A stretch of DNA of 64,000 nucleotides from Spizellomyces punctatus DAOM BR117 (lineage: Eukaryota): assembly GCA_000182565.2 (NCBI GenBank), contig KQ257454.1, one strand, 5' to 3'. Shown piece after piece: positions 2,322-64,000 of the stretch. Both the position numbers and the translations under genes were made by a program. Numbering within the stretch: the first letter of the stretch is position 1; each line of letters begins with the position of its first letter. Below the pieces are notes generated by a model. It had not been told where the DNA came from, ran no database searches, and worked only from the letters and a program-made list of their open reading frames with translations.

Positions 2322-3212
2322 TTAAGACATGTCGAGCAGCGAGCCACCGAGCTGTAAAGCAAGTTTCTTGGAGAAATCCGTGTTCCAGTACTTTGCTGCA
2401 ACGTCCTTTGGAATTGGCGGCAGCGAAGCCAGCTGTCCCTTGATCTCGGCTGCGCGTGCAAGAGCGGTGGTGAGGGTGGCCTGGACTGCGGGAGGTTTGT
2501 ATCCAGATGGGAAGCTTTCCGTCGTGAACATCCAAGCAATCTGCGCCATGCTAGTGTCTGAATCAGCCAGGCCGTTGTTGGAGCCGAAGAGGTCAAGGAT
2601 AAAGGCGGCTTCACCCAGAGCAAAGAATTCCGGCATGGATGGATCGACGACGAGTGAGCCGTCGGGGTTGACAGAGAGACGTCCATAGGAGAATTGAGGA
2701 TTGTACATCTCAGATTGGGTCTCACGAAGATGACGGATGTGGGCCATGGCCGTAGAATTCAGTTCAGTAAAGCCCAAATCCCTGACGTATTGGAGAGAGT
2801 TGGCGAAGAGGGTGCGGTTGTAAGAGTAGTTGTCACCTGAGCGGGATGTAGCAAAGTCATTGCGCGAAATGGATGCATCATGCTCCACAACGAATGGGAC
2901 GTGCTTTTTCAGATCCTCCAAGGCGAAGGGTACGGCGATTCCAGTTACGGGGTTGGACTGGATGGCAAAGACGGTTGCAGTGAAGTCTGGCGAAAAGTTG
3001 TAGGCGTCCGACAACGCTTGCTGAAGAATGGGAAGAGTCAGACCCTTGCCGTCTCTGGGTAAGAATCCGTGGTTTGCCAGAATGTTAAGACCGGGACATG
3101 GTCCACGAGAGGCGCCAGGAGGCTTGAGGAAGGGGTGGAGGGCAGCAGGGAGTGCGGTAACAGACGCTGCACTTGCAATGAGATACAGGGCGAAGCTCTT
3201 CAAGGCCAACAT
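2322..3212 (-). CDS. Secreted heme-thiolate peroxidase (unspecific peroxygenase/chloroperoxidase family), single exon
   Basis: Signal peptide, proximal-cysteine motif RGPCPGLNILANHGFLPRDG and EHDASISR motif. Minus-strand TATAAAA near 3297-3303. Confidence 0.92.
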   Translation of the reverse strand: MLALKSFALYLIASAASVTALPAALHPFLKPPGASRGPCPGLNILANHGFLPRDGKGLTLPILQQALSDAYNFSPDFTATVFAIQSNPVTGIAVPFALEDLKKHVPFVVEHDASISRNDFATSRSGDNYSYNRTLFANSLQYVRDLGFTELNSTAMAHIRHLRETQSEMYNPQFSYGRLSVNPDGSLVVDPSMPEFFALGEAAFILDLFGSNNGLADSDTSMAQIAWMFTTESFPSGYKPPAVQATLTTALARAAEIKGQLASLPPIPKDVAAKYWNTDFSKKLALQLGGSLLDMS

Positions 3213-5260
3213 GTTTGCTATTGAATGTGAGTACTTGTGATGACGGTTCTATGAGATCTTGGTACTGGGAGAGAAGGTGGAGATGATGGCCCTCCATTTT
3301 ATAGACATTTCTCCATTACAGGGACTGAAGTTTTTGCACATGCGGTGTGTTGACATGATGTTTGCTGGTTGGTTTTCTTTCTTTGTGTGCCGCATTCAAA
3401 GAGCGAAACAAATACGGCAGTTTATAGTATCTGCGCACTGTCGGCTTTTCGACTCTCCGCCAAACTCCGCTACTTACAGTAATGCCATTCACTGCTGTTT
3501 CTATTTTCAACCAAAAACCCTGGAAGAGGAGTTGTTTGTTCGACGCTCGCACCAGCAGCGTGGCGGTTTTTGTTGTCTGAAACTCCACGTCAATGCACGC
3601 CGTGGCCCACGGGATATAATCCTGAATGGTGAAGAAGGACTTGTTTATTTTTCATCTTTGAAAGAAAACGTTTGTTTGGAGGACGTTTGTGCAGCGTCTG
3701 TGTCGATTCAGCGCGTTGGTTTCATCGCCCAGACGACCCTAATGTGCGACAGCGGCGAGTTCTTTCGATTGTTCCAGCAGGTCAACAGCCGTCAAAGCAA
3801 ATAAAGGATCTTTGTTGACTTCAACCGACGGCGTGCAAGGAAAGAAGAATTGGAATCCACAAACGTTGTAAATCTTGCGTTAGCGCTAACTCAAATCGAG
3901 ATAATAACTTTGTAAACACTGTCTCCCAAGGAGAATTCAACCATGCATTTTCTGTGTCGTGAATGTGTGCTTATTGCATCTGCAGTGGTGATAGCATGAG
4001 TTAAGATTTTGACTAGTGTTCACTGTTGCAACACCTCCAAATTCTTAAACCATCACATCCGTCCAGTCCGAAAATCTATTGTAATCTCACATAAATATTT
4101 CGTTTGTTTTACAGTATGTTTTTCAAGTTTTAAATACAGATTCAATTCACCAGGGGGCAGTGCATGCACACGTCAGCAGCACCCATCAATATCAGTAAAA
4201 CATGGCTTCGAACTCGAAGCGAGGATCATCGGCGTGTTGGACAATCTCCTCAATCTGCCAATGGCCGACGGCGTTCACCTTCCTAGAACGGTTGCAACTT
4301 GTAGTTCTGTTTCTTTGAGACTACGTGAAATCATAAATGTCTGAAGTTTTGTCTGTTGATGGTGCATTGCCCTGGATAGAATTTCTGGAACCTCTAGATT
4401 CCTTAATTCTTGCACCGTAAATAACGTCGAGAGCAGTGGCTTGGGACAACAGAGAAGGGTGTGTTACAAATCACTGACGGACATTCGCCGTTAACTAAAG
4501 AGACTCCTTGGAATGGTGCCGAGTAGGGAGGACCTTTGCCGATTCCTTAATAACTATGTAGAGCAAAACAAGGTATAACCTGACCTTTGATTTCACATGA
4601 CAAGTGATAAAAAGAAAGCACCTTACATAGGTCAATTGTAACATTGGACTGTTAGTGCCTTGTTGGTGTAGGAACGTCAAACTATGGCCTTTTATGGCCT
4701 TTTACAGCTACTGAGGATGCAGGCAGTAACTAACGGCATCTTCGTAAAGCTTTTGCCAGCGCGATCGAGTATGGCTGCACTGCGCTTCCTGGTGTAAGGC
4801 AGCTCTACCAGGGTTGCCAGATGACCAACGCAAAGAGATATTTCCTAGACTACCAGTAACTTGCAGTATATACAATACAGTTACTTTTGTGCAGGATTCC
4901 TCATCTGCCGAAAAAACCAAGCTCCCAGGATCGAGAAGCATTCTGCAGCAATGAAGATCTAACGATGACTGCAGCTTCCAATTGGCTCTTGCTCTCTTTT
5001 CATGTTGACGAAGGTTGCAAAATTCACAACCTCAAGCCTGAGCCCACTGCTTTTTATCCTTCCTACGATTCTAATCCTGCACAAAATACCAACAGACTTG
5101 TCTCATGCATCCGATGTTGTGACCCCCTCCTTCTCCTCTGTTCTTTGATGAAAGATGTGATGATGAATTTAGAAAAATCCGTATCATGGACGGTTGATAA
5201 CCTACTGGAACTGAAGTGAACTTACGCTTACCGAATTATTAGCAAACCCGATTTGAATTG

Positions 5261-22888: not shown

Positions 22889-24688
22889 TTACAACTCGTC
22901 TACCGCCTGTGCCACACCACTTGTCTCAAAAGCCTTAACCAGCGCCCGGTGCCTCGCCTCGACGGGCACTACACCCAGTTCTGAAGCCTCCCTCGCCAGC
23001 TTTGTCACAAGCTCCTTATCCACTTCATTGCCCTCTTCTAATACTCCCAACCCTTTGAAGAGAGCGTCAAATGTTGCAGCATCTGGCTTCAAACCGTTTT
23101 CCTTCAACGTGTCATATACATTTAACGCTCCTTTCTGATCCCCCTTGATTGCGAATGCATTGATCAAAGCCGTATGTGCGCCTGTCTGGGGTTTGTGTCC
23201 AGTCGCTTGCATCGCCTCCAACGCCTTTTCCGCCCCTGCCACATCGCCGTTCAGAGCATGCGCTGCAATGGCAAATACATGGGCACCTGTTGACGTCGCA
23301 AAAGGTAAATCTTTTCCGTGAAGGTTATATAGCGCTAATGCCGTGGCGGGCTGGGGATGTTCAACTCTGTGTACTAGAGTCTCCATCAATCTGGCAATAA
23401 GGGGCGGTTGGGCGGATGCACGGATATCAGCCAGTTTCAACATATCGCAGATATATGCAGGTGCGTTGCCCACAAGGTCAGATGCAAGGGGGACGAGGAC
23501 GTTGGGTGACACATATGTGGCATGTCTTCGCAAGAGCTCTCCGAGCTTACGCCATCCCAAATCTGCCTGCCCGTTCGTTGTATAAGCCTCAATGAGCGCG
23601 CCGTACATGGCAAAAGTAGGGGTGAAATTTTCGACGAGTTCCTTTTTGTAAAAGAATTTGCTTGCGCCAGCAACATCTTTTGCTTTTCCATGCACTTGAA
23701 TCAGATAGGTGTACGTTTCCGGTGAGGCCTCAACACCTGCCTCTCGCATTTTGCGATAGAACGCAACGGCGTCGCCAACATTGCCCTTGACAGCGTGAGC
23801 ACGGATCATAGCAGTGTATGCTGCGGTTCCCTTTCTGAGGTTGCGTTTCTCGATCTCGTTAAAGTACTTGGTGGCAGACGATATACGTCCTCGCTTGGCG
23901 AATGCATCAATCAGACAACTGATCACCCGTTCTGTTGGTGGAATCTCGGCAGCGAGCATTCTCTCGTACGTAGCCACAGCTTCGACGGGGGTACCATAGT
24001 GTGCTTGTCCTCGAATCACAGATGCAAAATTCTCAGGCGATGGTTTCATGCCCTTCTCAGTCATACGGTGAAGAAGGCGGGCAGCTGCCTCCGGTCGCTC
24101 CCGCAGCGCAAGAACGTCAACAAGTGCATCGTAAATCTTACGTACATCTTCTCCAAGATCCGCGGCCAAGGCTGTTCTTGCGTATCGAACAGCTGCCGAC
24201 ACATCCCCTTTGAGCCCAAGAACCTTCACCATTGCCGCCTCGGTCTCAGCCGTGATCGCCACTCCTGCCTTTGTTAGCTCCGTGTGAATCTCATACGCCT
24301 TTTCTACACCGCGATATCTTTGAAACTTGGTGGTGTGTATGCCGATAGTGCGGATCAGACCAGCAAAGTCTTGGGGTTGAAGCTCACGCAGAACTCCGCG
24401 CTCACGGCAGGCCTCATAGGCATTGACCACCGCGTACGTTCTCTGAAGAGCAATTGCGTTTTGCAGCACTATGACAGGGTTGGCTTCGGTGTTTTTGAGA
24501 TCAGTGGGCTGTGCAACGGTGCTCGTCTCCTTTGGTCGTCGAGCACGGACGACACGACGGACGGAGGTGGTAACAGGGCGGGCATGGAGGGAGTGAGGGC
24601 GACTTTCAGAGATTGTAGCTAGGACTGAGAATGCTGGTCGTGCTCTAATGAGCAGCAGGCCTCGCTGGGCGGACCGTAGGAAAGACAT
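22889..24688 (-). CDS. Mitochondrial pentatricopeptide-repeat (PPR) protein, single exon
   Basis: Repeated 35-aa PPR-like units (YTAMIRAHAVKGNVGDAVAFYRKMREAGV; HTALINAFAIKGDQKGALNVYDTLKENGLKPD) and an Arg-rich presequence. Confidence 0.9.
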   Translation of the reverse strand: MSFLRSAQRGLLLIRARPAFSVLATISESRPHSLHARPVTTSVRRVVRARRPKETSTVAQPTDLKNTEANPVIVLQNAIALQRTYAVVNAYEACRERGVLRELQPQDFAGLIRTIGIHTTKFQRYRGVEKAYEIHTELTKAGVAITAETEAAMVKVLGLKGDVSAAVRYARTALAADLGEDVRKIYDALVDVLALRERPEAAARLLHRMTEKGMKPSPENFASVIRGQAHYGTPVEAVATYERMLAAEIPPTERVISCLIDAFAKRGRISSATKYFNEIEKRNLRKGTAAYTAMIRAHAVKGNVGDAVAFYRKMREAGVEASPETYTYLIQVHGKAKDVAGASKFFYKKELVENFTPTFAMYGALIEAYTTNGQADLGWRKLGELLRRHATYVSPNVLVPLASDLVGNAPAYICDMLKLADIRASAQPPLIARLMETLVHRVEHPQPATALALYNLHGKDLPFATSTGAHVFAIAAHALNGDVAGAEKALEAMQATGHKPQTGAHTALINAFAIKGDQKGALNVYDTLKENGLKPDAATFDALFKGLGVLEEGNEVDKELVTKLAREASELGVVPVEARHRALVKAFETSGVAQAVDEL

Positions 24689-25140
24689 GAATGGTTTTCA
24701 GGGACTGGGAGAGATCACCAGCAAGCTCAACTGTTGACTGGCCTAGCAACGACTTGGTCGTTGTCAAGGAAGCTTCCAGATGGCACAGTCATATAATTGG
24801 CATCATGCGTGAGGTTGAACATCAAGTGAACGAAGTCTCGGTCGATATACTCCCGGAAGAAAGAATGCATTGGAGAGGTTGAACCTTGGAGTTTATGAAT
24901 GTCTTGACGAAGAGATGGCGGATGACACCTTGACGCCTGCTCGGGGGCGAATCACAGAATGCAGCTTCCTGATTGAGTATTTTACGTGTATTCAACTTCT
25001 AAAAGGTTGAAGGGACTACGAGGGTTCCGGCCATTAGATGACAATCGATGCATCAGAACGGCCTCGGGCTCCAACGACAATCTCTACTTCCCTCCATCTG
25101 TAATCAGTAGTGACGTTGCGCAAGCGAATGCGATGCTGGT

Positions 25141-38469: not shown

Positions 38470-40047
38470 ATGGTAAGGAATGATGAGAAGGATGATCATG
38501 GCCCAGCAGGCTATTATTGGCGGCAGCCATCCACCGTTACCACTGGCGATTCACATATGCTTCACAGCGTCCCATTCTTTTACACGGACATACTCGGTCG
38601 TTGACCAAAATCAAATATAACCGCGACGGTGATCTCCTTTTTTCGACTTTCAAAAGACAACAAGCCAAACGTCTGGTTTTCTCATAATGGCGAGCGTCTC
38701 GGAAGTTACAATGGACACAACGGAGCTGTATGGGATTTGGACGTTAGCTGTGAGTTGCCACGCCGGGAATACCTGGCTCGACAGTTGCTATGGAAAGCTT
38801 GTTGAGTGGAGGCCAGTCGCTTACTTATCCTCATTAGACGACAGCACTCGACTATTGACGGGATCAGCCGATAACAGCTGCAGACTCTGGGAGGTTCAAA
38901 CCGGACGGCAACTTTTCCAATGGAATACGCGGACGGCAGTGAGAGCAGTGCAATTTGCACAGGGAAACCGGATGGCATTGTACGTCACGGATGCTACGAT
39001 GGGCCAGCCTTCAACAATCTGGATCGTCCCAGTCGAGGAGGATCTCGAGAACCGTATGTGTATCGCTTTCAGATGCGGATTTGGCTACGATACTTATGCT
39101 CTATCAACAACAGAAACTGACGAGTTTATTCGCAAAATCGTAATTACCGGTCCCAAAGCCACCGTTGCATCATGGGGTGATTTGAACAAAACTATTTACA
39201 CGGGTCACGAAGATGGAACCATTACAATTTGGGATGCAGAGGTAATTCGGACCGAGCGATTGTGTTTTAAAGCTATCGATGTATTAAATCCTTGTCGTGT
39301 GACAGACTGGAGAGAAGATAAAGTCCGTAAAAAGCCACACAGAATCGATCTCCGATATGCAATGGTCCAAGGATTTCGGTTACTTCATTACAGCCTCGAA
39401 GGATCAGACTTCGAAGATCTTTGACGGAAAGACCCTTAAAGTGATGAAGACATACACAACGGAGCGTCCCGTGAACTCAGCTTCATTGTCTCCAATCCGA
39501 CCTCACGTAAGTTGAAGTACCATTGCAGAGTTGTCGTACGGCTCGGTAACACGCAGTGTTTTTGCTCTTTGTAGATTATGCTCGGTGGTGGTCAGGAGGC
39601 GATGAATGTGACCACAACTGGGGCCAAGCAAGGAAAGTTCGAAGTTCGGTAAGTTCACATGATCTCCCTTATATGGCCGATCTGGAGGGTGGGCCAGTCG
39701 CATGATTCCACTAACCGCGTTACTATCTACAATTAGCTTTTTCCACTTACCTTTCGAGGAAGAGATTGGTCGAGTGAAGGGACATTTCGGTCCGATCAAC
39801 ACTCTGGCATTCCACCCTGATGGCCGAAGGTATGAGATGGCGGTAGCAAGCTAGGATAACCTGTTTATGATGCTGACTTCCGATACGCAGTTTTGCAAGC
39901 GGTGGTGAAGACGGTTTCGTTCGACTCCATCATTTCGACGAGGATTACTTTACATTCAAGTACGTGTCCAACACTCCTCGATATTGTGAGTCGCATTTCT
40001 AAGATCCGTTCCTTCTGAATAGATACGAAGAGGAAACCCTTGAGTAA
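38470..40047 (+). CDS. TIF34: Translation initiation factor eIF3 subunit i (WD40); apparent +1 frameshift at about 38648-38650
   Basis: [87 protein letters not shown]. Confidence 0.92.
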
Positions 40048-47380: not shown

Positions 47381-48061
47381 TTACGCTTCTTCGGCAACTA
47401 CGGCTGCGCCATTTACACACAAATCTTCAAAGAAGCGAACTTTTGGCTTGATACTCGGGCAAAGTATCAGTGCAGTATAGGGATCTGTACGCAGGACTTT
47501 CATAGATTCCAAAGACTGGACACTTGGACGTTCCTCAAGCCCTCTCCGTAGTGTCGTGAATAGGATACATTTCCGCAGGACTTCGCGTGCCGTCCAGTGA
47601 GCAACACGTATGGGATTATTAATGTACCCAACATCGTCCTGGCGGAATGGCATAGTGCGAAGGATATTCCATTCAACCAGGTCTTTGCGGGTAGGACGTT
47701 GGGGGTAAACGAAGAGACGGCTGGATACACGGTGGCGGTTACGAAGGACGATGTATCTGCGCCAGAGGATTTTGTCAGAAGCTTGGCGGCGCAGCAAGTG
47801 ATTGACCCGGCATAAGGTCCGGAGGTCGGTATCCTCTACAAACTTGATAAAGAGTCGTTTCAGCCCTGGCAGCCCTGGCGCAACTTGTCCATGTATTTCT
47901 TTACTTACAGTCATTATGTATGCCCAGAGCTCTTCGGGAATGTTCATTGCAGTAACCTCAGTCAACTCATTTTCGCTTTCTTTCTTTTCGCCAAGCTCTT
48001 CCATAGAAGCCGAGCGATAGCGCTTGAGGGCCTGAGTAGTCTCTTCGCCACCGCTCGCCAT
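47381..48061 (-). CDS. F-box protein with two RPEL-like repeats; in-frame 66-bp intron at 47843-47908
   Basis: After splicing the F-box reads IPEELWAYIMTFVEDTDLRTLCRVNHLLRRQASDKILWR, followed by QRPTRKDLVEWNIL and LEERPSVQSLESMKVL. Confidence 0.7.
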   Translation of the reverse strand: MASGGEETTQALKRYRSASMEELGEKKESENELTEVTAMNIPEELWAYIMTVSKEIHGQVAPGLPGLKRLFIKFVEDTDLRTLCRVNHLLRRQASDKILWRRYIVLRNRHRVSSRLFVYPQRPTRKDLVEWNILRTMPFRQDDVGYINNPIRVAHWTAREVLRKCILFTTLRRGLEERPSVQSLESMKVLRTDPYTALILCPSIKPKVRFFEDLCVNGAAVVAEEA

Positions 48062-48510
48062 GCTCGCCGTGCTCTGTAGGAACTCTAGAGACCTCTTACT
48101 ACCAAGAAAGAAAGGGAAAGGGACAAGTAAAAATAGGCAGTTGAGAGAATGTAACTACAGCAAATTAACTACAGCAAAAAGAGTTAGAGTAATGGTGGCT
48201 GTTAGTGGATGGAGTATTCTACAGTGCCAAGCAATTGCGGAGGAAAAACAAATCCGACATGGAAGAGGAAAACCCAGAAGCAGGTCAGCAGTTTGTGTTT
48301 CGAGGCGCCAAGTGATTCCGTAACGGTGCGTCAGCGCGTTTGACGCGCTCCTTTTGATTACGAAATCGAGATCGATGGGTGATGGCTCAGTGACTTGTTT
48401 TCGGGTAAAAAGTCAGCACGACTGGACCGCCTTCGTTTACGCACAGCGCCGAAATCAAAACGAACAGCGTTTTTTCGCCAATTGTAGAGACTTGACCAAA
48501 ATCAATCAGC

Positions 48511-60960: not shown

Positions 60961-62529
60961 CTAGTTCAGAGGTATACTCTGAGGAAATTGAAAACGATTA
61001 GAGGAATACGATTGCCGCTTGACCTGCTTTAATCGATCGTACGCCGCTCCATAATACGCTTGTTGCCGGTTCGGGAGCCCCTTGTCAATAGAGTTTTGGT
61101 ACGCTGGAACAGTATTTGTTTTGTACTCTTTACGGTATAGAGTAGCCAGATTACCGTAGAAGTTGTTAATCCAGGTAGGACACGTCGGGCAATCGGAGTT
61201 ACCTGGGGGAGCATTCAGATTCCCCATTCAACTACTATCTCAATGCCAAACAGCTCATTGCGATGAATGAAAGCAGTCTCGGAAACAGGAACATTGCTGA
61301 CTTATCCACCCCAAAGATCGATGATGATATAAGCTCCGGTCAAGCCTCTCGGTATTGAACAGAGGTATTTGTTCATGATCTGTACAGTTTGCCCGCTGAA
61401 AGGAGCACTGTAGAATAATAAGTTGCCTTTAATGCACTTTGCGTCCTGAACAAAGGGGTGTTGCATGCCTGCCGGCTTTGTGGTGTCCATCCAAGTAAAA
61501 CGAAGTAACGCATCCATAAGCGACTGCTGCCGTACATCTGAGGCAGAAGGTTGCGACCCTACAGCGTCTATAAAGCCCTTTAAAATCCCGTTGAGGTTTG
61601 ACTTTGGATCGAGGTATAGTCCTTGCAGCTCCAAGGATCCTGCAGAATTCCAGTTCAATTCAGTTGTCAGATCGTTCGTCGCCTTTGGGCCCCATGTGTT
61701 ATAGGCAGCAAGCACGGCGCGGTGTTGACTGGCGGGCCAACTAAATGTAAACGAAGTCACAGCGTCCGTATTGGGCACGGTTTGTAAGGCGATCTTGAAT
61801 GATGTTATGATCCCCAAAGATCCTGAAGCAGCAGAAGATAATTGAGCATAGTTGCTTCAAGCCTCAACGTTCCTGTCTCCTGCACGTTACCTCCACCAAC
61901 TCCACAAAGTTGCCCAAAATAATTTGGGTTCTGATTTTTATTTGCTACTAGCATGTCTCCCTTTGCGCTGACCATTGTGATTTCCAAAGCTTGATCGGCA
62001 GCCACTCCATATTTTACGCCCAAAGAGCCCGTATCCACCGTGTAGCGTTAGACCTCCCACACCTACGGTAGGACAGGTACCACCTGGAAAAGCATATTTT
62101 TCCTGCCGTCCATAACTTGTAATAGAGCGGGGCAAGCATGTTTCCATTACCGACAACGGCTGTACGGGTATTCTTATCGACGGATACTGAATACAGCTTG
62201 TACAAGTCCACAAGTAGAGCTCCATTCTTCCCACCTTGCGAGTACCCTTCGTAAGAGTGGCCACTAGATCGGGGAGCTATCGTCATGTTGTTTTGCGTTC
62301 GCACACATTACGGCAGTTTGAATGTGTTTCTCCTTCGTTGGGATGAATATTGCCGCGGGTTTATAGGTGAAGCGGTAGTCTTGTCCAAGTGAAGCTTTTG
62401 GGTATGTCGGATCTGAAGGTGCGATTACCTTGGAACCATCTTGAATACCAGAAATAGTTGTATAAGCTGGCCAAATGTGCATGGTGCGCCAGGAAAAAGA
62501 CAAGCCAAAGTGGCCACGACAAGACGCAT
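60961..62529 (-). pseudogene. Secreted FAD-linked oxidase (berberine-bridge/AA7-type), disrupted
   Basis: RSSGHSYEG, GTCPTVGVGG, GGYG and the C-terminal YQN..D...YYG..Y.RL..VK are spread over several frames. There are at least 5 frameshifts and an in-frame TAA at 61302-61304. Confidence 0.8.
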
Positions 62530-63021
62530 GTTATGTCTCCTCCCAGAGATCGGCGCAGATTCAGAGATATGCGAGCCCGCACAGAAGGAGTTGGTATGCC
62601 TGATCTACTTTATTGACGATTAACAAGAGTTGGATCCTCTGATCGCTGTAAGCAGCATTGTACAGCCATGAGTGGTCGCTGAGTTCCGATTTTTCTAATC
62701 TCTTTTCTTTGTGCTGCGTGCTGCCGCACCGACCCTTTTATTTTGTCTTCAACAAGAAGACCATGCGTGTCGTCCTGCACGAATTCGGGAGCTGACTTTT
62801 AGCGTTCGTCAGTGTAGATAAAGTTGCTGCGAGATGGACGTTGAGATCGGAGTATCGCTCCCGGCGGTGAAAACGCGAGGATGGCACAGTTAGAGATGAT
62901 GTCACTCCCAACGAGTGACGTCCAACAAGTTGCCGGCAACTACTTAAAGCAAACCTTTTTTGACGGGGAGAGCTTCACTTGCCCTTCTTGTCGGTGCAAG
63001 TTCTATCCTCGTCCAGTACAA

Positions 63022-64000
63022 ATGTCAGCTCAACCAGGAGGACATACATTTCGCGTCTGGGCACCGGATGCCCCTTCTGTAACGTTGGTGTTGGGCGCTG
63101 GGGACCAAGCCAAGTCCATCCCCATGAAGAAAGTAGATGTCCCATCTGCACGTAGTCAAGGATGGTGGGAGGCAGTTGTCAAGGGTGCAGGACACGGTTC
63201 CGACTATGGATTTCTGGTAGAGAAGAACAAATATAACGTCGACAAACCTTTACCGGACCCTCGAGGTTTCTGGCTTCCTACAAGCGTTCACGGACCCTCA
63301 CGAGTTTACAATCATGATCAATTCAAATGGACAGACAAAACATGGAGAGGCGTGCCTCTGGCAGGGTAAGCTAATTGTTGGCCGGCTCCACTGGAAAATA
63401 ACATTGACACATCCTCAGATCAGTGCTGTACGAGCTGCACGTCGGTACTTTTAGCGAGGAAGGCACCTTTGATGGTGCCATAAAGAAATTGGATCATCTC
63501 GTAAATCTAGGAATAGATGCAATTGAATTGCTCCCTTGCAACGCATTTCCTGGTCAATGGAACTGGGGATATGATGGGGTTGGCTTGTACGCGGTCCAAG
63601 AGTCATACGGTGGTCCCGACGGCCTGAAACGCCTCGTCGATGCTTGCCACGCTAGAGGTATTGGAGTTATAATGGACGTGGTATATAACCACCTTGGTCC
63701 CGATGGCAATTATTTGGAGTGCTTTGGTCCGTACTTTAGTACAAAGTCCAATTCATGGGGGACTTCAGTCAATTTGGACGGGCCATGGTCGGATGAGGTG
63801 CGGAGCTTCTTCATCGACAATGCTTTGATGTGGTTGGAGCATTATCACATCGATGGTCTTCGATTGGACGCCGTCCACGCTTTACTTGATACAAGCGCAA
63901 CCCATTTCCTCGAGGATCTCGCCAATCATGTACGCAATCTGAGTGCACGTCTTCGAAAGCCTCTGTTCCTCATCGCGGAGTCGGATCTCAATGATCCAAG
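63022..64000 (+). CDS. treZ: Malto-oligosyltrehalose trehalohydrolase (GH13, bacterial TreZ type), intron at 63366-63418, runs off the window
   Basis: FRVWAP, PDPR...[78 protein letters not shown]. Confidence 0.9.

Follow-up and report, generated by a model that had tools for sequence, protein, structure and literature searches.

The treZ locus and its product

The window analysed here is a stretch of 64,000 nucleotides from contig KQ257454.1 of the chytrid Spizellomyces punctatus DAOM BR117, and its 3' end carries the first half of treZ. From the sequence of 62000-64000 and a six-frame list of open reading frames, the start codon was placed at the ATG at 63022 on the plus strand. The reading frame from this ATG is unbroken until a TAA at 63367, and the next frame, 63408..63998, is open. 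The features of the locus are:

62531..63021, plus strand: 5' flank and short 5' UTR of treZ (the spliced contig from sequencing run X3 starts 22 nt ahead of the ATG, at 63000); a divergent spacer common to treZ (plus) and a FAD-binding oxidase gene (minus)
63022..63365, plus strand: treZ exon 1, 344 nt, with the start codon, the N-terminal CBM48, residues 1-114 and two bases of Gly115
63366..63418, plus strand: treZ spliceosomal intron, 53 nt, GTAAGC...CAG, phase 2, between the CBM48 and the catalytic barrel
63419..64000, plus strand: treZ exon 2, cut at the window end, with GH13 conserved regions I-III, residues 115-309 of 606
63867..63869, plus strand: codon of Asp265 (RLDAV), aligned to Asp252 of Sulfolobus TreZ 1EH9
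63978..63980, plus strand: codon of Glu302 (IAESD), aligned to Glu283 of 1EH9

The third catalytic residue, Asp397 (QDHDQ), falls past the window end and is visible only in the 606-residue database protein P0001.

The treZ frame is also open for 177 nt 5' of the start codon (62845-63021, plus strand), with earlier in-frame ATGs (MAQLEMMSLPTSDV...). This extension is probably not translated, because the X3 contig starts at 63000 and orthologous proteins start near MSAQ. Directly upstream of treZ and divergent from it lies a FAD_binding_4 oxidase gene (61302-62530, minus strand; E 1.1e-07 on one piece), with matching pieces on the minus strand at 62014-62307. This oxidase gene is spread across several reading frames and therefore carries introns.

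The first-pass annotation had described a 53-bp GTAAG...CAG intron joining the two treZ exons in frame, and this description was confirmed by the database protein, by the continuity of the family profile and by a contig that lacks the 53 bases. The joined exons match P0001 letter for letter. In the NCBIfam model TIGR02402, exon 1 covers profile positions 2-92 (E 1.1e-17) and exon 2 positions 96-287 (E 3.1e-97), and because these positions abut, the join is seamless in the TreZ profile. The intron has a GC content of 45% and a branch-point-like TTGAC 14-18 nt before the AG.

Four sequencing runs were compared with 62500-64000, and on reads the intron was upheld in part. On the positive side, a contig from run X3 (1345 nt, depth about 20, five differences from the window) extends from 63000 to beyond 64000 and lacks 53 nt, bounded by GT..AG, where the intron is predicted; intergenic DNA upstream of treZ is without cover in this run. 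The contig has the shape of a processed mRNA, which is good although not final evidence, the kind of run not being on record. A contig from run X2 (1209 nt, 62659-63867) keeps the intron. On the negative side, the 6% that was read of X6, the only raw RNA-seq run under the species label, contained seven reads and no junction read, and no run on record as RNA contains the stretch.

All five motifs from which TreZ had first been recognised are present in the open frame 63408..63998, far beyond chance. The gene encodes a complete malto-oligosyltrehalose trehalohydrolase (TreZ) of predicted activity, a GH13 protein that begins with a CBM48. P0001 scored 725.7 bits against TIGR02402, the model of the TreZ family (GH13 subfamily 10 in CAZy), over profile positions 2-544 of 545 (cut-off 538.8); the match extends to residue 562, and P0396, a cluster mate of P0001, scored 718.4 bits. 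The part in the window, which is only half of the gene, scored 63.6 and 326.1 bits on its own. For exon 2 the runner-up family in NCBIfam was GlgB, at 118 bits against 326 for TreZ. Pfam assigned CBM_48 to exon 1 (E 4.1e-11) and Alpha-amylase to exon 2 (E 1.1e-22); a further Pfam domain, DUF3459 (PF11941), is listed for most of the bacterial matches and not for the chytrid proteins.

P0001 aligned to the Sulfolobus TreZ 1EH9 with 457 bits and to the Deinococcus TreZ 2BHU with 390 bits. Its Asp265, Glu302 and Asp397 stand opposite Asp252, Glu283 and Asp377 of 1EH9, presumably the nucleophile, the general acid/base and the transition-state stabiliser, respectively, and the catalytic Asp/Glu/Asp of GH13 regions II, III and IV are all present. 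A TreZ-specific block after region III, DAQWxDDxHHSxHAxLTGERQGYY, is conserved with respect to the solved enzyme. The order of domains, CBM48, GH13 (beta/alpha)8 barrel and C-terminal domain, is that of TreZ from Sulfolobus solfataricus (1EH9, 3VGB) and Deinococcus radiodurans (2BHU). Unlike the genes for those enzymes, the chytrid gene is nuclear, interrupted by an intron and host-like in codon composition, and the activity of its product is predicted. The TIGR02402 scores and the alignment to 1EH9 thus identify the protein as TreZ and not as a eukaryotic branching or debranching enzyme. It would be cytosolic, because its N-terminus resembles the bacterial one and has no obvious leader or signal peptide.

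Several of these chytrid proteins are named trehalohydrolase or synthase in GenBank. In UniRef, chytrid TreZ proteins P0004 and P0408 are labelled '1,4-alpha-glucan-branching enzyme', a name that looks wrong because this family scores much higher with the TreZ model than with those for GlgB.

Distribution and origin of treZ

Exon 2 was searched against 5.8 billion proteins, and 120 matches were listed. Rows 1-7 of these are chytrid proteins, namely that of the window and those of six named species with identities of 80-92%: Phlyctochytrium arcticum (92% identity to exon 2), Gaertneriomyces semiglobifer (91%), Geranomyces variabilis (90%), Fimicolochytrium jonesii (84%), Borealophlyctis nickersoniae (82%) and Rhizophlyctis rosea (80%). 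The other named rows among the matches listed are bacterial, mostly Frankiales, Mycobacteriales or Frankia MAGs, and identities in the remaining rows are 60-75%. A cluster look-up added Powellomyces hirtus, Geranomyces michiganensis and Gaertneriomyces sp. as TreZ carriers. The named chytrid carriers belong to the Spizellomycetales and Rhizophlyctidales. P. arcticum (TreZ P0002, TreY P0283) is placed in the Chytridiales by NCBI taxonomy; in the trees described below its TreZ is sister to that of the window (support 97-98) and its TreY groups among those of the Spizellomycetales (99). We take this species to have been moved to Triparticalcar (T. arcticum) in the Spizellomycetales. Either the name is outdated, or treZ and treY are present beyond the two orders.

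One genome per prokaryotic species was scanned for bacterial relatives, which gave 597, and the best 80 were kept. These 80 share 50-60% identity with the chytrid protein over the full length, with Frankiales/Mycobacteriales MAGs at the top.

One might suspect that treZ is a bacterial contaminant or was wrongly joined into the fungal assembly, because outside the fungi its nearest relatives are Actinomycetota from soil, a group that often contaminates cultures and soil samples. Five of ten long open reading frames spread over the window match Pfam families (EIF3I/WD40, PPR, RPEL, Peroxidase_2 and FAD_binding_4), and the first four of these are typical of eukaryotes:

2322-3248, minus strand: 308-aa open frame, Peroxidase_2 (heme-thiolate/chloroperoxidase family), E 5.6e-40
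22889-24697, minus strand: intron-less ORF of 602 aa with PPR repeats (Pfam)
38633-39424, plus strand: eIF3I/WD40 exon (Pfam)
47381-48154, minus strand: RPEL-repeat ORF (Pfam)

The PPR, eIF3I/WD40 and RPEL frames are ordinary eukaryotic genes and confirm the host context within the same 64-kb stretch. GC content is even across the window (0.43-0.52). At third codon positions it is 0.49 in the treZ part and 0.45-0.60 in four host ORFs, against 0.88-0.98 in treZ of five close bacterial loci. Identity to any bacterium is 50-60% at most over the full length among the best 80 of 597, and chytrid treZ orthologues lie on contigs of 0.2-2.1 Mb in many assemblies. The first-pass annotation had held the intron to argue against contamination; with the GT..AG intron missing from one contig (X3) and present in another (X2), and with a codon composition close to the host's, eukaryotic genes around treZ and orthologues on record from many chytrid assemblies, contamination is ruled out for practical purposes, its probability being negligible.

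A TreZ tree of 101 rows (7 chytrids, 80 bacterial loci, 11 metagenomic proteins and 3 fused forms) was computed with a quick IQ-TREE run under LG+C20 PMSF, with SH-aLRT support only and the root not inferred; the chytrid rows deviate in amino-acid make-up, here and in the TreY tree below. The seven chytrid proteins form one clan (100), and within it the Rhizophlyctidales (97) separate from the Spizellomycetales (97), the pattern that vertical descent predicts. The chytrid clan lies within a 41-row clan of Actinomycetes (100), itself within a 73-row clan of mostly Actinomycetota (99). Nearest to the chytrids are a 20-row clade of Frankiales/Mycobacteriales MAGs and the metagenomic proteins P0008 and P0010, with a joint support of 94; one cluster mate of the two metagenomic proteins is labelled Actinomycetota. 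An AU test was carried out on a 44-row subset picked from the 101 rows (7 chytrids, 25 Actinomycetota and 12 other bacteria). Forcing the 25 Actinomycetota together without the chytrids, a group named after the tree was seen and drawn from a bacterial sample biased to the closest relatives, cost 82.0 lnL with a p-AU of 0.0005.

An ancient eukaryotic TreZ lost nearly everywhere, or a transfer from chytrids to bacteria, would be compatible with the unrooted trees in so far as a split between the chytrids and all the rest exists in the TreZ trees. Such an origin is nevertheless very improbable. The chytrid clan sits deep in nested Actinomycetota clans (supports 99 and 100), a placement outside them was rejected by the AU test, the only eukaryotic names among the 120 matches listed are those of rows 1-7, from two sister orders, and TreY shows the same pattern. 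Nesting in the Actinomycetota and the AU test instead bear out the first suggestion of a horizontal transfer from Actinobacteria. The transfer is old and common to two chytrid orders. The donor lineage probably stood near today's Frankiales/Mycobacteriales soil MAGs, labels that are the submitters' names for these MAGs. Nested among bacterial genes, patchy in eukaryotes, integrated in a host genome, ameliorated in composition and with an intron gained, treZ has the features of a domesticated bacterial gene.

The three fused forms in the tree were considered as fungal forms and rejected. The TreZ parts of two TreY-TreZ fusions, P0027 (1275 aa) and P0031 (1492 aa), and of a GlgB-TreZ fusion, P0030 (1255 aa), fall among the bacterial rows. 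The fusions are on contigs of 7-308 kb, and P0027 and P0030 have very long branches.

The partner gene treY

In a Frankiales MAG locus (L003), treX, treY and treZ stand in a row, and its TreY was searched against 1.84 billion cluster representatives. The best match, at 892.7 bits, was P0121 from Borealophlyctis nickersoniae, whose amino-acid make-up is fungal and not actinobacterial. P0121 is the representative of a 50%-identity cluster, and it outscored every bacterial representative for this Frankiales TreY. With P0121 as query, nine chytrid TreY clusters came first among the matches listed, followed by Actinomycetota MAGs at 50-54% identity. Chytrid TreY was found in Spizellomyces 'palustris', Powellomyces, Geranomyces, Fimicolochytrium, Thoreauomyces, Rhizophlyctis, P. 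arcticum and Gaertneriomyces; the S. 'palustris' cluster includes an S. punctatus record that GenBank names malto-oligosyltrehalose synthase. Three chytrid TreY proteins, two from Spizellomyces and one from Borealophlyctis, scored 912.7-925.6 bits against TIGR02401 (cut-off 498.65). TreY was matched in every sampled genus of both orders, Thoreauomyces being seen for TreY only, and all eight genera with a named TreZ record have kept both proteins.

A TreY tree of 74 rows was likewise a quick IQ-TREE run (SH-aLRT only, unrooted). Its ten chytrid TreY proteins make up one clan (100), and a wider clan of 26 rows (97) unites them with the MAG loci that are closest for TreZ. Of the 150 TreY representatives whose amino-acid make-up is least actinobacterial, 13 were looked up together with P0122; the sole named eukaryote among them was a chytrid, most carried no name, and the remaining named ones were bacterial or metagenomic.

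Gene order was compared across the 80 bacterial treZ loci. In 53 of the 80, treY ends within 150 nt upstream of treZ on the same strand, and in 11 it lies 153-2797 nt upstream on the same strand. It is on the other strand in one locus and was not seen in 15, five of which have less than 700 nt of upstream DNA. The chytrid genes are arranged differently: fungal treY and treZ are on different contigs in nearly all assemblies listed, and the operon is dispersed in chytrids after transfer. In one Geranomyces variabilis assembly, TreY and TreZ (P0401 and P0406; HDU89_005752 and HDU89_005812) are both on a contig of 223,071 bases, 60 locus tags apart, and this is the only assembly on record in which the two genes may share one.

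The first-pass annotation had proposed to look for treY and treX in the genome, especially just past position 64000; treY probably does not lie there, because no TreY record is on a contig of 1,543,596 bases, the size of the one that bears P0001. A tblastn search of the 64-kb window with Frankiales TreY and TreX returned weak cross-matches on treZ itself only.

The occurrence of the two genes is best read as a single old transfer of a treY-treZ operon fragment, which would be economical because both have the same bacterial sister group and treY stands directly upstream of treZ in bacteria. Two separate transfers could be proposed from the different contigs that the genes now occupy in nearly all assemblies. 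This second reading is quite improbable, given that the sister group comprises the very same MAG loci for both genes, that their fungal distribution is the same and that they are adjacent in 53 of 80 bacterial loci. The actinobacterial treX-treY-treZ operon, as in L003, is the closest known system (55-60% identity for TreZ, 50-54% for TreY); the chytrid genes differ from it in being unlinked and intron-bearing, and the chemistry is presumably shared. An operon of this composition is described from mycobacteria in a review (PMC11046441).

A predicted glucan-to-trehalose route

The best explanation overall, with a probability of roughly 0.8, is an ancestral acquisition of treY and treZ followed by domestication and vertical inheritance, with the two products forming a glucan-to-trehalose route of predicted activity. 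The ancestor of the Spizellomycetales and Rhizophlyctidales would have gained the treY-treZ piece of an actinobacterial trehalose operon. During domestication, composition would have shifted towards that of the host, one or more spliceosomal introns would have been gained and the operon would have been split onto separate loci, after which both genes would have been passed on vertically. In the cytosol, TreY would act on linear malto-oligosaccharides, changing the alpha-1,4 bond at their reducing end into an alpha,alpha-1,1 bond, and TreZ would cut off the terminal trehalose from the resulting malto-oligosyltrehalose. The net result would be a route from stored alpha-glucan to trehalose that is independent of nucleotide sugars.

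[quoted passage not shown] The sequence evidence covers the identity, intact catalytic residues, splicing and origin of chytrid TreZ and the presence of its partner gene; the enzyme activity in vivo, the substrate supply and the physiological role of the pair are inferred. The reducing end of eukaryotic glycogen is anchored to glycogenin, and neither such bound ends nor the eukaryotic debranching enzyme would obviously provide free malto-oligosaccharides. TreY requires free reducing ends of linear glucans, which TreX/GlgX supplies in bacteria (PMC11046441).

Given the identity and origin of the two proteins, it is reasonably likely that the pair makes trehalose from stored or ingested alpha-glucan, because both enzymes are conserved in every sampled genus of two orders. 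A transferred TreZ could instead have become an intracellular hydrolase of the amylase or debranching type, acting on glycogen or on ingested glucans of bacterial or plant origin. TreZ enzymes have a weak side activity on malto-oligosaccharides, TreX was not seen in the window, treY and treZ are no longer linked, and the activity of the chytrid enzyme is a prediction. This other use of TreZ is unlikely, since both partners are kept in all eight genera with a named TreZ record, TreZ and TreY both pass their equivalog cut-offs, the TreZ-specific block after region III is conserved, and the retention of TreY would be hard to explain without TreZ function. Between the two roles suggested initially, a second trehalose route and a use of bacterial glucans, the persistence of treY favours the former.

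The canonical fungal route through Tps1/Tps2 (TPS/TPP) leads to the same end product by unrelated enzymes; its substrates are UDP-glucose and glucose-6-phosphate, and that of TreY-TreZ is alpha-1,4-glucan. The Spizellomycetales and Rhizophlyctidales are typical, mainly soil-dwelling chytrids. Soil chytrids are exposed to cycles of drying and wetting and form resistant structures (PMC3261367). A contribution of the TreY-TreZ pair to drying tolerance would be an attractive possibility. That both orders owe their tolerance of drying and rewetting to a complete TreY-TreZ pathway from soil actinobacteria is a tentative and rather doubtful proposal. If true, it would mean that this 'prokaryotic' route from glycogen to trehalose works in a eukaryote and that its transfer helped a zoosporic lineage to live on land.

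Two reviews treat the TreY-TreZ route as bacterial and archaeal (PMC2769160, PMC11046441), and a survey of metazoans did not find it there (PMC8277472). Full-text searches gave no description of TreY/TreZ in chytrids or other fungi, PMC9667741 being among the papers checked. The main text of a study of transfers into 44 early-diverging fungi (PMC11291939) is without 'trehal', 'GH13' and 'glycogen', and its supplementary tables may list the gene. The nearest published parallel is a GH13 alpha-amylase gene that passed from actinobacteria to the Agaricomycotina and later gained introns (Da Lage et al. 2013, PMC3584928). Shared with the chytrid case are an actinobacterial GH13 gene entering the ancestor of a fungal clade, the gain of introns and vertical descent. 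The alpha-amylase differs in GH13 subfamily, function and fungal phylum, and it gained introns in the plural, whereas one intron is visible in the 5' part of chytrid treZ and the chytrids took two genes of a pathway. The TreZ family, transfer from bacteria to fungi as a kind of event and the protein names in GenBank are already known; new here are the ancient transfer common to two orders, the co-transferred treY, the named donor neighbourhood and the dispersed operon.

One species of the soil chytrid group is reported to be genetically transformable (PMC7213984), and the chytrid TreY-TreZ pair is a testable candidate for stress protection in these organisms. Chytrid treZ also offers clean material for the study of intron gain and codon amelioration after transfer. 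A conserved, spliced two-gene copy in one fungal clade indicates that a short pathway can pass between kingdoms as a whole and persist after its operon has broken up, and the importance of the finding would rise if the pathway works and matters for life in soil.
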